DNA of 14,942 nt from the NCBI GenBank assembly GCA_964615185.1, contig CAZTOS010000035.1, positions 1 to 14,942 on the forward strand, written 5' to 3'. A model generated the notes under the pieces. The model searched no databases. It was not told the DNA's origin and was given only the letters and a program-made list of their open reading frames with translations. A program made the translations under genes and the position numbers. This document shows, one piece after another, positions 2,203-7,592 of the stretch (positions within the stretch are counted from its first letter, which is position 1; the number at the start of each line of letters is the position of its first letter). Origin of the DNA: an uncultured Thermococci archaeon (lineage in GTDB: Archaea > Methanobacteriota_B > Thermococci > Thermococcales > Thermococcaceae).

Positions 2203-2754
2203 TTAGATCAGGTCATATTTTTTAAACTCAGAGGTAAGCTCCTCAACGGCCCTCTTGATGTCCTCCTCCGTTCTGGCCCCAGAAACTACTACCTTCCCGC
2301 TGTTGAATATAAGGACTGTCATCCTGGAGTTTTTGACCCTGTAGATCACACCAGGAAAGATTTCAGGCTCGTACTCCACGTTTGGGAGAGTTAGTGCAAC
2401 GATGTCAAGGTCGAGCGTCCCAAACCCCAAGTCGCCGGCAGCCACGATGTTCTGAACCTGTATCTCAGGCTCTCCCTTGAACTTCATACCCATAGCTTCA
2501 AGCGTCCGTTTGAGCTTTTCGGTGGCCTTCTTAATCGTTTCAACGCTCTTTGCTCCTGTGCAGACGAGCTTCCCGGAGTAGAATATCAAAAACGTCACAC
2601 CAAGGGACTCCATCTTGTAAACGGCTCCCGGGAACACTGAGGGGTTATAGTGCACGGAGTCCAGTTCACTTGCCACTCTCTCAACATCTATCTCACCGTG
2701 TAAGTCAATGGAAGCCACCACGTTTTCAACCTTAAGGGACATTTCCTCCACCAT
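2203..2754 (-). CDS. tbp: TATA-box-binding protein, divergent paralogue
   Basis: Two TBP repeats: ENVVAS...YNPSVFPGAVY...LIFYSGKLVCTGAKS and QNIVAA...YEPEIFPGVIY...LIFNSGKVVVSGART. All four intercalating Phe are retained. Confidence 0.95.
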   Translation of the reverse strand: MVEEMSLKVENVVASIDLHGEIDVERVASELDSVHYNPSVFPGAVYKMESLGVTFLIFYSGKLVCTGAKSVETIKKATEKLKRTLEAMGMKFKGEPEIQVQNIVAAGDLGFGTLDLDIVALTLPNVEYEPEIFPGVIYRVKNSRMTVLIFNSGKVVVSGARTEEDIKRAVEELTSEFKKYDLI

Positions 2755-2804: not shown

Positions 2805-3301
2805 TTAGTTTACGCTCATGTATGTATTCTGGTTGATGTTGGTTCTGAAGGTCGCCCTAACGCTAAAAAGTCCAAATAATCCCGCAACTACCTGAAACTG
2901 ACACCACGATACTTCCCCAGAAAACTGTGCCCCTTTTCACGAGTGTTAACATGAACCTCGCCACGTGCAAACTCTCTCCCAGAATGATTAACCCGCTCGT
3001 GAGAAATGATAATACTCCCCAATCCCTCCTTCAGAGAATTATAAATGGAGTACTCGTCAGTGAAAACCTTTAGTCCCCCCACAATCAAATTCCCAACCCG
3101 CTGCCTGAACTTCTGAGGAGGTTCTCTGGTGCTTTTATGTGGCATTGACCACTTTACTGCCACAATATAGGGCAGGTTACTCCTCCTGGCCAGCATGTTT
3201 GCCTGATTATTCTGTAGCATCCTTCGGGGCCAGACAGGATTTTAGTGGCGATTCTAGCAGTTAATCTTAATAGATTGTACATCACAGGTGGCGGGAACTA
3301 A
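2805..3301 (-). mobile_element. Decayed, internally deleted IS1595-family element (transposase pseudogene ~3282 to ~2855)
   Basis: From ATG 3282: MYNLLRLTARIATKILSGPEGCYRIIRQTCWPGGVTCP, then a frameshift to YCGSK (Zn-ribbon N-terminus). This joins VFTDEYSIYNSL...HERVNHS..EFARGEVHVNT.E...YRGVSFR*LRDYLDFLAL (ISXO2/IS1595 C-terminal half with an in-frame stop). Imperfect inverted ends TTAGTTTACGCTCATGTATGTA / TTAGTTCCCGCCACCTGTGATGTA. Confidence 0.85.
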
Positions 3302-3348: not shown

Positions 3349-4287
3349 ATGAAAGTAAAAATAGTCTTCGGCATAATACTGGTGGCCCTAGTTCTCATGA
3401 GCCAAAATGTAGCATTGGCCTCCTCTAATGATGAGAAACCTCTAGTAGTTGTGTCTACAACTGTTTTAGAGAGTATAGTCAAGGACTTGGCCGGAGATAA
3501 AGTTGACGTTTTAGTTCTAGTTAGTCCAGCTGTATGTCCAGGACATTATGATGTAAGACCAAGTGATGTTTGGGCAGTAAGTAATGCAAAATTAATTCTT
3601 TACCATGGATTTGAGCCCTGGGTAGAAAAACTGGTTAAGGCTTCAAAGTCTAAAGCTGATGTTGTTAAAGTTCCTGGACCTTGGAACACTCCAGATGCCC
3701 TCAAGGAGAGATACAGGGATGTAGCTAAGATTTTAGAAGAAAAGCTTGGTATTTCAGTTCAAGAAAGACTTAGTGAAAAATTGAATGAAATCAACGAAGT
3801 TTCCAATGAACTTAAAGCTAAGGCAGAGGCCTACAATTTTAATGAGGTAAATGTAATTGTCATGGAATGGCAAAAGTCTTTTGTTGAATGGCTTGGTTTT
3901 AATATTGTTGCTACTTATCCCTCTCCAGAAAAGCTTTCTACCAAGGATATTGTTGAATTGGAGAAAAAAGCAAGGGAAGAAAATGTTCTTTTAGTGATAG
4001 ATAATCTTCAAAGCGGAGTTTCCTTTGGACAAAATTTGGCATCTCGCATTGGAGCAGTTCATGTTACATTGACTAACTTTCCTGGAAATGCCCCTAATGT
4101 CAACACAGTATTGGATGTTATGAAATATAATACAGAAAACCTAATCATTGCAGTAAAAACCGCAAAAGAGATACAAGAAAAGAATGCGCTTAAAGAAAAG
4201 CTTTCAACTTACAAGACTCTCGCAATCGTTGGAATATCCTTAGTGATTATTGAGGCTTTAGTGATAATCTTTATTAGGAGGAGATGA
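3349..4287 (+). CDS. Metal ABC transporter substrate-binding protein (ZnuA/TroA-like), with signal peptide and C-terminal membrane anchor
   Basis: Signal peptide; VVVSTTVLESIVKDLAGDKVDV..LV.P..CPGHYDVRPSD....AKLILYHGFEPW is the cluster A-I N-terminus; hydrophobic C-terminal helix followed by RRR. Confidence 0.88.
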   Translation: MKVKIVFGIILVALVLMSQNVALASSNDEKPLVVVSTTVLESIVKDLAGDKVDVLVLVSPAVCPGHYDVRPSDVWAVSNAKLILYHGFEPWVEKLVKASKSKADVVKVPGPWNTPDALKERYRDVAKILEEKLGISVQERLSEKLNEINEVSNELKAKAEAYNFNEVNVIVMEWQKSFVEWLGFNIVATYPSPEKLSTKDIVELEKKAREENVLLVIDNLQSGVSFGQNLASRIGAVHVTLTNFPGNAPNVNTVLDVMKYNTENLIIAVKTAKEIQEKNALKEKLSTYKTLAIVGISLVIIEALVIIFIRRR

Positions 4288-4691
4288 GAGAGATGCTCTC
4301 TTTGAAAGATGCTGGGACTTTTCATGGGCATCTTGGCCCTTATTTAACAATAGGCTACATGGCTGGAGTATTTGCATCAGAAAAGTTAGAGCAAAAGACT
4401 GAATTTGACCTAGAAGCATGGGTGATGGTGCCAGGAAAAACCCCATACACTTGCATAGTTGATGGAGTTCAGTGCTCCTCTAAGTGTACCCTTGGGAAGG
4501 GGAACATTCATGTAATAGACAGTCCAAAATTCGAAATCAAGTTCAAAAACAAGAAAACAGGTAAAGAGATCAGATTAAGGATAAAAAGAGAAGTTCTTGA
4601 AACAATAGATGAATATGGAGAGGATATGGAGGGAGCAGTGAAGTGGATAAGGTCAAAAGCTTTGCAGGAGATATTCGAGATAGTAGAATAG
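4284..4691 (+). CDS. FmdE/FwdE-family protein
   Basis: FHGHLGPYLTIGY and TCIVDGVQCSSKCTLGKGN motifs. ATGA overlap with the upstream stop; alternative start at ATG 4293. Confidence 0.88.
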   Translation: MREMLSLKDAGTFHGHLGPYLTIGYMAGVFASEKLEQKTEFDLEAWVMVPGKTPYTCIVDGVQCSSKCTLGKGNIHVIDSPKFEIKFKNKKTGKEIRLRIKREVLETIDEYGEDMEGAVKWIRSKALQEIFEIVE

Positions 4692-5359
4692 CCCTCTACA
4701 TGGAAAATGTTTCAACCCTTTATGCAGGAGAGAAAAAGCCCTCCATCTTTAATATTTCTCTAAAAGTCAGATATGGCGATTTTTTGCTCCTAACTGGTCC
4801 GAACGGTGCTGGAAAAACAACGCTAATTGAGACAGCATTGGGATTATTGAAAATCATTTCTGGAAGAGTCCTCTTGTTTGGTTATCATATTCCAGGAGAA
4901 AAGTATAAAGCATTACATTTTGTAAGTTATGTTCCTCAAGACTTCATGAAAAGCCCCTTGGAACCTTACACTGTAAAGGATGTTGTTGCAATGGGCCTTG
5001 CATCGAGAAAGGAGCCTTTTGAGAAATTGAGCAGGGAAGAAAGGAAAAAAGTGAAAGAAGTCCTTGACATTGTCGGAGTAGGTGAGCTTATCAATAAACC
5101 AATAGGGAAACTAAGCGGTGGACAACAACAAAGAGTAATAATTGCGAGGGCTCTGGTAAGAGATCCTTTGCTCTTATTTTTAGATGAACCATTCAGCAGT
5201 TTAGATCCTGAAGGAAGAGAATACATGAGTAAACTCTTTTCTGAAATCAACAAACATGGAACCACAATAGTAATGGTTTCTCACGACAAGAATTACATTC
5301 CTCATAGATGCAACAGGATAGTGGAGATGATGAATGGGAAGATTATGAGGGAGAGTTAG
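4643..5359 (+). CDS. Metal ABC transporter ATP-binding protein (ZnuC-like)
   Basis: Walker A GPNGAGKTT, YVPQ Q-loop, LSGGQQQRV signature, LLFLDEPF Walker B, SHD. Start is GTG 4643 (GGAGG upstream) or ATG 4700. Confidence 0.92.
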   Translation: MDKVKSFAGDIRDSRIALYMENVSTLYAGEKKPSIFNISLKVRYGDFLLLTGPNGAGKTTLIETALGLLKIISGRVLLFGYHIPGEKYKALHFVSYVPQDFMKSPLEPYTVKDVVAMGLASRKEPFEKLSREERKKVKEVLDIVGVGELINKPIGKLSGGQQQRVIIARALVRDPLLLFLDEPFSSLDPEGREYMSKLFSEINKHGTTIVMVSHDKNYIPHRCNRIVEMMNGKIMRES

Positions 5360-6148
5360 ATGTATGGAATTATAATACAAGCGATAATAGGAGGTACAAT
5401 AGCTGGGATTCTCTGCGGTGTCTTGGGAATTCTAATGACAAGATTAAAGCTCAATACTATTGTATTCTCAAGTGCACACTCCGCCTTGGCTGGTGCTGCT
5501 CTCTCCTTAATAATTCCACTTGATCAAATTATTTTAAGTACAGGATTTGTGCTTTTTACAGCCTTAATTTTAGGCCCTCTCAGTGATGCTCTTCTTTTAC
5601 CTCTTGATCAAATTTCAATGGTGCTTCTATCAATATACACGGCACTGGCGTTGATATTTGTATACCTTGCCCCCGGAGGAGTTACTTCCTCTGAAGTTCT
5701 AGCCAAAGTCTTTTGGGGGAGTGTTTTTGCTGTAAATATTCAATATGTTATCCTTCTTTTTGGACTTCTTGCCGTTTTGCTTTTATACCTCTCCTTCTCC
5801 TGGACAAAGTTAAAGGCAATACTCTACGATAGAAGGCTGGCTGAAGCTGAGGGAATAAATACAAAACCCTATGTTTATTCGCTAATCTTACTAACTGGAA
5901 TTACAATAGTTTTTGTTTTAAAAATCGTGGGAGGACTATTAGTTTATGCTATTCTCTTCAATCCAGCAACTGCGGCATCAAAGCTGGCACATAACATAGA
6001 GAAAAGGATAGTACTTTCAGCGCTCTTTGGAGTGCTTTCAGTGCTCTTAGGAATTCTACTAAGTTTATGCTTTAATCTTCCAGTTGGAGCGTGTATAGCA
6101 TTGGCTTCAGCCATAGTTATGTTGATAGCTAGAATATTACCAAGATAA
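5360..6148 (+). CDS. Metal ABC transporter permease (ZnuB/ABC-3 family)
   Basis: Multi-TM protein with SAHSALAGAAL, FWGSVFAV, YDRRLAEAEGIN, KIVGGLLV..L..PATAA and NLPVGACIAL motifs. Confidence 0.92.
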   Translation: MYGIIIQAIIGGTIAGILCGVLGILMTRLKLNTIVFSSAHSALAGAALSLIIPLDQIILSTGFVLFTALILGPLSDALLLPLDQISMVLLSIYTALALIFVYLAPGGVTSSEVLAKVFWGSVFAVNIQYVILLFGLLAVLLLYLSFSWTKLKAILYDRRLAEAEGINTKPYVYSLILLTGITIVFVLKIVGGLLVYAILFNPATAASKLAHNIEKRIVLSALFGVLSVLLGILLSLCFNLPVGACIALASAIVMLIARILPR

Positions 6149-6350
6149 GCTGAAACAGTCCAGAAAAGGCCTTAAATTTCGTACTTTGAAAATCCGTCGG
6201 AGTTCACGTTCTTAGATACCGTTAGGGTTGCAGTATCCCCCAATGCACGCAGACGAGAAACAACAAGAACCGCTATCAGGATCACATTTACATTTTTCTT
6301 TTGAAAGCCTTGGGGCGGGGATGCAGTGATTCTAAAATTGGCATTCAAGC

Positions 6351-6365
6351 AGAAACCCTTTTAAA
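6351..6365 (+). promoter_or_regulatory. BRE/TATA promoter upstream of the structured RNA and the CruF-like gene
   Basis: AGAAACCCTTTTAAA, about 20 nt before the first hairpin. Confidence 0.6.
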
Positions 6366-6383
6366 TTTTGCCGGTGTAATAAG

Positions 6384-6540
6384 GCCTCGAAGAGGCACCG
6401 TCAGAACCCTCAAGGGGGTTTCATGCTATCCTCCGCTCTCGGAGGGTTGACGCTGTAAAGCATCCTTTCAAAACCGCCTTTAAGTGGTTAAAACTCTTGG
6501 AGTGGTCTCTGGGCGGGGTGCATATGAATGAATCAATCAC
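6384..6540 (+). ncRNA. Putative structured non-coding RNA (TnpB omega-RNA/sotRNA-like scaffold)
   Basis: Stems: GCCTC/GAGGC (6384-6396). CGTCA/TGACG (6399-6403 / 6448-6452) encloses AACCCT/GGGGTT (6405-6420) and ATCCTCCG/CGGAGGGT (6428-6447). GCATCCT/GGGGTGC (6460-6466 / 6515-6521) encloses AACCGC/GTGGTT (6472-6489) and ACTC/GAGT (6493-6503). Confidence 0.5.
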
Positions 6541-6563
6541 GCAATGGTAGCCAGGTAGTTGAC

Positions 6564-7289
6564 ATGGCTATCATCACGCCGCTAATAGTAGCGCACGTGG
6601 CGGTGTTCCTGCTGTCCCCCAGTCTTACCACAGAAATCATCTATATGCTTGGCTACGTCGCTTCACTTGCGATAGCGTCGAGATATAGAGAGTATAGGCA
6701 TGTACTCATAATACCCGTTGCTGGCTTCGCCATAGGTTTAGCGTCAGAGGTGGCTGGAGTTAATGCTGGAATCCCCTTCGGTAGGTACGAGTATGTCTCG
6801 CTGGTAACTCCACGAGTCCTTGGTGTACCTCTTTCAGTCCCACTCATGTGGGGCTTCTACGCCTACCTAACGTACCTCATAGCGTCCTCCATCATAACAC
6901 GTAAGGACACTGCGGGGGTCATCCTAAGGGTTACATACGCCTCCCTCCTCATGGTCGCCTTAGACTTGGCAATGGATCCCTTCATGGTCAGCAAAATACA
7001 TGCATGGGTCTGGTTAGGCGGGTGGGGGCCTGCATGGTTCGGTATTCCAGCAAGCAACTTCGTTGGGTGGTTCATAGTGTCGTTCGCAATACTCCTCACC
7101 CATGAGGTTATGGCGAGGAACTCATCAACACCTAAAACAATAGCACTCGCAATCCCCTATGCATGCCTCCTAATGTACTTTGCCTCCTTCATAGGTCCCG
7201 AACTAGCGGCTCCAATAGCCGCACTACTCGTAACCCTGTTAACGGTGCCTGTAATAATAAAAAACCTGGTGACGTTACGCAATGATTGA
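6564..7289 (+). CDS. CruF/DUF422-like membrane protein (carotenoid biosynthesis / 1,2-hydratase family)
   Basis: SEVAGVNAGIPFGRYEY, GVPLSVPLMW, LDLAMDP...AWVW and WFGIPASNFVGWF are the family motifs. ATG 6564 is preferred; ATG 6528 lies inside the IS-derived segment. Confidence 0.85.
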   Translation: MAIITPLIVAHVAVFLLSPSLTTEIIYMLGYVASLAIASRYREYRHVLIIPVAGFAIGLASEVAGVNAGIPFGRYEYVSLVTPRVLGVPLSVPLMWGFYAYLTYLIASSIITRKDTAGVILRVTYASLLMVALDLAMDPFMVSKIHAWVWLGGWGPAWFGIPASNFVGWFIVSFAILLTHEVMARNSSTPKTIALAIPYACLLMYFASFIGPELAAPIAALLVTLLTVPVIIKNLVTLRND

Positions 7290-7592
7290 AGTGGTCTTTA
7301 GGGAGCTCACAAACCAAATGAATTATTCTTTATTTCTGGAAGTTTTACGCGTGAGATTAAAAAGGTTGGAGATTCTTGAGCTTTATCACAGCTCTTTTTG
7401 AGAGGGCTAACAATCCTGCCAAGAAAATAAGGCCTTCCAAAACTGTCCATCTCTCATAAAAGATAGCTTGAAGTGGAGGAATTCAGGTAAAACAGTTTGG
7501 GCGATAACCTCATTTATAATACCCAGTCATGATAAACACTCAGGGAAGAAAACTTAAATCCCTTCAGTTGTAAGATGACCCTTTAGTTATAG

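Follow-up and report, generated by a model that had tools for sequence, protein, structure and literature searches.

Element segment and family copies

The segment between a metal ABC permease gene (5360-6148, + strand) and a gene for a cruF-like carotenoid-biosynthesis membrane protein (6528-7289, also + strand; PF04240, Pfam E 3e-33) is, fairly probably, a gene-less mini-element of the IS200/IS605 type that is truncated at its 3' side, is decaying and has been fused through a GGTG to the cruF-like gene; its promoter likely drives that gene, and its fold would be a passive leader. The window, i.e. the whole stretch of DNA analysed (14,942 nt), comes from an uncultured Thermococci archaeon (source genome G000, whose contigs carry C numbers, other G numbers being other genomes), and sequences related to the element segment derive from Thermococci records. 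Observed directly were how many copies the family has, how its full copies are laid out, the absence of the 3' module from the window copy, the junction, and that this copy folds more weakly.

In IS608 and ISDra2, the target is TTAC and an AAAG guide sits at the base of the left hairpin. The window copy fits this scheme: a TTTAC target or left cleavage motif lies on the host side of the insertion (6287-6291, + strand), and the left end (6292-6326, + strand) holds the AAAG guide (6304-6307) and a subterminal GC hairpin (6308-6320) that is 7 nt shorter than the long form, just as the initial annotation had read TTTAC, AAAG and a damaged GC hairpin. This hairpin matches the left end of a tnpA+tnpB element on another contig (G000:C16:12125; E 4.6e-10). 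Among 107 copies the short hairpin form occurs in 14 and the long form in 90, TTAC precedes GAAAG by no more than 20 nt in 78 (4/107 in a control window), and loose ends of other copies begin at 6287-6298. No tnpA or tnpB ORF was found in the window segment. A small ORF within 6292-6530 was considered and rejected: stops interrupt four of the six frames, + frame 0 has one stop, - frame 2 is open but start-less in the domain, and indels among copies argue against coding.

BLAST of the element segment against the genome it comes from returned 29 matches. With a covariance model built on the folded part, G000 yielded 19 copies, and 97 Thermococcaceae genomes together yielded 225 matches, spread over 51 of them. 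Similarity between copies begins at ~6292, flanking DNA is unrelated from copy to copy, and conservation drops off at both ends into the flanks, as in dispersed copies with sharp boundaries. The annotated protein-free IS200/IS605-type cassette, counted across Thermococcaceae, proved to be multi-copy, free of tnpA and tnpB ORFs and equipped with a left end shared with a tnpA+tnpB element. The domain was found in none of 36 genomes from other families of the phylum searched with the covariance model. A GTDB pattern scan returned 36 loci, and none of the 12 bacterial loci tested was better than E 0.043; viral contigs gave no match to the domain, and plasmid matches were confined to the right-end hairpin. 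Of 67 loci returned by a metagenome scan, 14 proved real; the seven listed have the same layout.

Several variants were recorded within the family. In two genomes (loci L051, G016:C8, and L059, G020:C1) the element and the displayed flanks are letter-identical. Minimal elements of ~50 nt, in which both ends share a single hairpin, occur at G000:C32:14404-14453 (the one examined in full) and on G000:C6, ending at 35798. In a sub-lineage of four copies (G000:C38:18162, C106:1237, C2:79888 and C6:21301) a 40-nt deletion removed the BRE/TATA, and part of the omega module is gone, the 5' domain being kept.

Layout of full copies and the missing 3' module

Full copies span ~360-420 nt and consist, in order, of the left end, a BRE/TATA, a ~120-nt multibranch domain, a TnpB omega-RNA and a right end (TCAG); their 3' module is ~165 nt long and ends in GGAGGAGGTCAG. 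Among 144 distinct copies, drawn from the 225 matches plus weaker ones, 120 carry both the omega module and the right end, 11 carry one of them, three are cut by a contig end and ten carry neither; the left end is detectable in 130. The window copy is one of the ten, several of which carry decayed remnants. The 3' module of the copy on contig C112 is 78-90% identical to five tnpB 3' ends of G000 over 92-150 nt, and it matches the Rfam families HgcC (E 1.4e-5) and sot0042 (E 2.7e-5), in both cases below the gathering score. An intact tnpA+tnpB element with the same ends lies at G000 C16:12125-14021. Four further contigs (C1, C27, C42 and C56) hold tnpB-only elements with an ORF of ~50 codons between promoter and tnpB, whose product we take to resemble a ribbon-helix-helix repressor. 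Guides of 31 right ends in G000 gave only loose 14-nt matches and no clear TTAC-adjacent target, in an informal comparison covering the first eight flanks per guide.

The window copy has neither the omega-RNA module nor the right end (hairpin and terminal tetranucleotide). Rfam had no family at gathering score in the window and no credible one in 6100-6700 at E 10; RF00062 and RF02656 had no match in the window even at E 10, and a tRNA scan of the window was empty. The initial annotation had taken the fold itself for an omega-RNA, i.e. an orphan TnpB guide-RNA scaffold able to load TnpB in trans. This identification failed: the scaffold lies 3' of the domain in full copies (120/144), where the C112 module matches both Rfam families, and it has been lost from the window copy together with the right end. 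Therefore the window copy cannot supply a TnpB guide in trans, a role that might fall to full copies at other sites of the genome. As far as its sequence tells, the window copy is a real element copy and not a guide scaffold.

The domain tends to occur together with TnpB. A cognate TnpB was found in 44 of the 51 genomes with the domain and in 21 of the 46 without it (Spearman 0.67), counts in which related genomes are not independent; the remaining 7/51 domain-bearing genomes have no cognate TnpB match.

Junction with the cruF-like gene

Three other copies of G000 (C38, C106 and C2) have in common an internal deletion by which the domain now abuts GGTGA and the terminal part of the omega module. 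Copies of this kind in four metagenome runs align to the window through 6519-6520 and then continue into their right end. Where the gene occurs without the element, its match to the window begins at 6517 or 6522, and the DNA before it is AT-rich and unrelated. The GGTG at 6517-6520 (+ strand) is therefore common to the element and to the likely ribosome-binding site of the gene, and we infer a microhomology fusion at that site. An element-free allele of the insertion site itself was not seen in five sequencing runs.

The segment had been annotated as ending near TCAATCAC (6533-6540). The start of the cruF-like gene at 6528 (MNQS) is common to close homologues, so these letters are its codons 2-5, i.e. 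coding sequence, and the right end of the family is GGAGGAGGTCAG. A decayed right end at 6521-6555, where MAFFT places CAATGG, was rejected: element-free genes match from 6517 or 6522, the first listed difference is at 6547, and the N-terminus is conserved.

The same truncated copy stands at the orthologous site of G106. The two alleles differ at 13 of 132 positions in the fold, 6 of 34 in the left end, 5 of 41 in the promoter region and 25 of 143 in the spacer, and by 2-4% in the genes, so that fold and promoter region are only somewhat better conserved than the spacer. The left-end hairpin, P1 and P4 (see below) are damaged in the window copy and damaged in other ways in G106.

Several features of the surrounding genes were also noted. 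The cruF-like protein scores below the CruF equivalog cut-offs; its homologues within Thermococcaceae are 31-38% identical, except that of G106 (96%), and its nearest named homologue is a Bathyarchaeota record (82%), so the gene looks horizontally shared. The metal ABC operon and an FmdE gene (window 3349-6148) have 35-42% GC, against ~50-55% in the adjoining blocks. Window 5013-7278 is 95% identical in G106, which is filed under another genus; given this identity across genera, the block 3349-6148 may have been transferred, or G106 may be mis-binned. About 290 bp (window 7279-7568) are missing from the G106 allele; in the window they alter the C-terminal residues of the cruF-like protein relative to P0001, and they are possibly another insertion. 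A fragment that weakly resembles transposases of the IS1595 family (PF12762, E 2.5e-4, below cut-off) adjoins a TATA-binding protein gene, the two occupying 2888-3220 and 2203-2754 (both - strand).

Folded 5' domain

The uncatalogued 5' multibranch domain occupies 6391-6510 (+ strand) and has no Rfam match. In the family fold, P1 (6391-6399/6502-6510) encloses the hairpins P3 (6429-6446), P4 (6449-6464) and P5 (6473-6488) as well as P2, which is either a local hairpin (6404-6421) or a long-range pairing (6417-6421/6491-6495). The window copy has a 1-nt deletion in P1 and one A-C mismatch in P4. A palindrome, P0 (6383-6397), straddles the predicted transcription start.

When 94 distinct copies are fitted to the model, base pairing is present in 95% of the cells of 31 pairs, compared with 41-50% in slid controls. 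Double changes occur at 18 of the 31 pairs in an alignment that, being model-fitted, leans toward structure, and part of the P3 covariation resembles a register shift. Folding energies of 112 copies have a median z of -4.9, and 95% lie below -2; the window copy is among the weakest, with just four of the 112 weaker. Tree-aware covariation on an unguided, sequence-only alignment ranked stem pairs at the top but was marginal, with E values of 0.05-0.15, the best pair of the domain reaching E 0.15. The structure appears to be kept across the family and is decayed in the window copy. At the family level we regard the ~120-nt domain as real.

The fold that had been described for the window copy itself fared less well. 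Its dense folding over 6385-6540 is no better than that of shuffled sequence (z -1.23; 21 of 200 shuffles fold as well), and better spans of the same copy reach z -2.22 (6376-6520; 7/200 shuffles) and z -1.7. The proposed CGTCA/TGACG stem is paired in just 207 of 465 cells (45%) over the 94 distinct copies. The proposed ATGCT/AGCAT pseudoknot, paired in 375/470 cells, is unsupported because it competes for the same bases as P4 (555/564) and is mostly interrupted at its first and last pairs.

Counted along the tree, G-U changes outnumber A-C changes in the domain (107 vs 66; p 0.002), with no general bias of C>T over G>A. P0 is paired in 524/564 cells and shows no strand preference (34 changes to G-U vs 29 to A-C), and the excess of the domain does not exceed that of P0 significantly (Fisher p 0.30). 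With the predicted +1 at G6389, P0 would be half untranscribed, and it probably forms no RNA hairpin within the transcript of the element itself. P2 is capped by a K-loop-type word in 30/94 copies; the word is absent from the window copy.

A highly improbable reading is that the domain works as single-stranded DNA, compacting the excised top strand for TnpA peel-and-paste, its RNA being incidental. The strand selected is indeed the top strand, and the G-U excess equally fits RNA or single-stranded DNA. Against it, i) the conserved promoter is placed so as to put +1 at the start of P1, and BRE and P1 lie 37-38 nt apart in 58 of the 64 copies scored; ii) P2 carries the K-loop-type cap in 30/94 copies; and iii) G000 contains the ~50-nt elements that have no domain. 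That IS200/IS605 elements move as single strands, as described in PMC10055086, is in keeping with this reading.

Origin and role of the domain

Neither BLAST nor profile nor covariance model detected homology linking the domain with tnpB 3' ends or with any other portion of the autonomous elements. BLAST of the domain against ten tnpB loci gave no match. With filters off, the covariance model found only short, weak matches in 11 loci (best E 0.0036, 50 nt on one omega-RNA), and the domain profile scored just three of 101 omega modules, at 6 bits or less. Across 126 loci, TnpB coding sequence turned up only as three C-terminal fragments, which overlap the omega part, and as one neighbouring gene that stands apart. 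The literature found holds no description of the domain, most subscription papers and the supplement of PMC4247193 (for the extent of TK HgcC4/HgcC5) lying outside its coverage.

These results speak against a second reading, in which the idea of the initial annotation is carried over to the family and the domain is itself a protein scaffold: a diverged second omega-RNA for another TnpB or a TnpB-derived regulator, or a scaffold for an unknown partner. To the eye, P2 looks like the first hairpin of the omega-RNA, its K-loop word also occurs in the HgcC consensus, and the weak 50-nt match just mentioned falls on an omega-RNA. The domain, on the other hand, is not followed by a right-end hairpin or guide of its own, the profile and TnpB coding searches speak against a derivation from tnpB, and outside Thermococcaceae there is no real match in phylum genomes, bacteria, viruses or plasmids. 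We therefore consider a scaffold very unlikely.

Our best guess is that the domain acts as a 5' leader that would stabilise the omega-RNA precursor. Full copies would move via TnpA supplied in trans, and a cognate tnpA for such mobilisation is present at C16. Each full copy would yield one transcript of ~300 nt, starting at about the equivalent of G6389, with the 5' domain ahead of the omega-RNA; under the leader model, the primary transcript would begin at the G that precedes AGAGGCCAC, and processing would leave an end close to GATAACCCC. In place of the tnpB mRNA, the domain would provide a closed 5' leader that shields the precursor; closure of the 5' end by P1 would plausibly stabilise it, and TnpB produced elsewhere would then trim and load the precursor. 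Trimming of 5' sequence from its precursor by TnpB is described in PMC10278001, and a dependence of PATEs on TnpB in trans is proposed in PMC10055086.

A stronger version of this model, which we hold to be possible yet rather doubtful, makes the promoter and the closed, often K-loop-capped domain a purpose-built module with which gene-less elements of Thermococcaceae outcompete autonomous ones for TnpB loading in trans, and treats the window copy as being domesticated, through a microhomology fusion, into promoter and regulatory 5' leader of the horizontally shared cruF-like gene.

Predicted promoter and likely transcription of the cruF-like gene

The good BRE/TATA of the initial annotation held up: a BRE (AGAAA, 6351-6355) and a TATA (6359-6366), both on the + strand, are present in 111 of 143 copies and are letter-identical in the G106 allele. 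The P. furiosus promoter consensus, as given in PMC6640164, places the TATA at -30 to -23 and a YR at -1/+1; applied to 6359-6366, it predicts +1 at G6389, two bases before P1. A second BRE/TATA-like site lies at 6163, the pattern having a frequency of 0.08 per kb per strand in the genome.

At the window locus, a microhomology deletion or recombination would have taken the right end and left the copy immobile, and the gene's own upstream DNA would also have been lost. The element promoter is now the promoter-like site nearest to the cruF-like gene, and the annotated structured leader for the downstream gene is plausible; this promoter likely drives the gene now, through a leader of ~140 nt. 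Read-through into the cruF-like gene from the co-oriented ABC operon is possible.

Such read-through, or the site at 6163, would account for cruF-like expression if the window copy were inert debris with a silent or irrelevant promoter, a reading that we judge unlikely. Decay is evident, since the left-end hairpin, P1 and P4 are damaged in the window copy and differently in G106, and the fold ranks near the bottom of the 112 copies; the other promoter-like site also suits debris. Yet the BRE/TATA has stayed letter-identical in both alleles, no promoter-like site is closer to the gene, and the upstream DNA of element-free gene versions is gone at the window locus. The reading as a decaying mini-element whose promoter likely drives the gene, with the fold as passive leader, is the one we prefer.

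Comparison with known systems and significance

The right end of the family, TCAG with GAAC, fits the same IS608/ISDra2 scheme, whereas the window copy has no right end. In a preprint by Meers et al. (PMC10055086), PATEs resemble the full copies in sharing tnpA/tnpB ends, lacking ORFs, being multi-copy and carrying an omega-RNA that needs TnpB in trans. Compared with PATEs so described, the full copies add a dedicated promoter and the ~120-nt conserved domain, for which no source in a parent element was detected, whereas the window copy has neither omega-RNA nor right end. Both HgcC (RF00062) and sot0042 (RF02656) are matched at E ~1e-5, below gathering score, by the 3' module of a full copy and by that of cognate tnpB genes; the window copy in contrast has no match, and the 5' domain lies outside both models. 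PMC4615843 and PMC4247193 document transposase-free HgcC transcripts in T. kodakarensis and link HgcC to tnpB 3' ends.

The nearest experimental precedent for promoter-driven, processed orphan RNAs is provided by sRk48/sRk52 and sRkB/sRkC of P. abyssi, which Phok et al. 2011 (PMC3124441) describe as promoter-driven, repeated, orfB-derived, 5'-processed and K-turn binders of L7Ae. Judged by eye from the sequences given there, however, the RNAs and their right ends fall into other TnpB families. Unlike the domain described here, their 5' parts align to the orfB 3' end.

The domain is a testable candidate for how gene-less IS200/IS605 elements load guide RNA onto TnpB made elsewhere. A conserved 5' domain, predicted to be promoter-driven, occurs in about half of Thermococcaceae genomes and could serve as a heat-stable leader for guide expression. 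The window copy, itself decayed, is a natural truncation in which domain and scaffold have come apart, and it clearly illustrates how the promoter of a transposon can become joined to a foreign gene.
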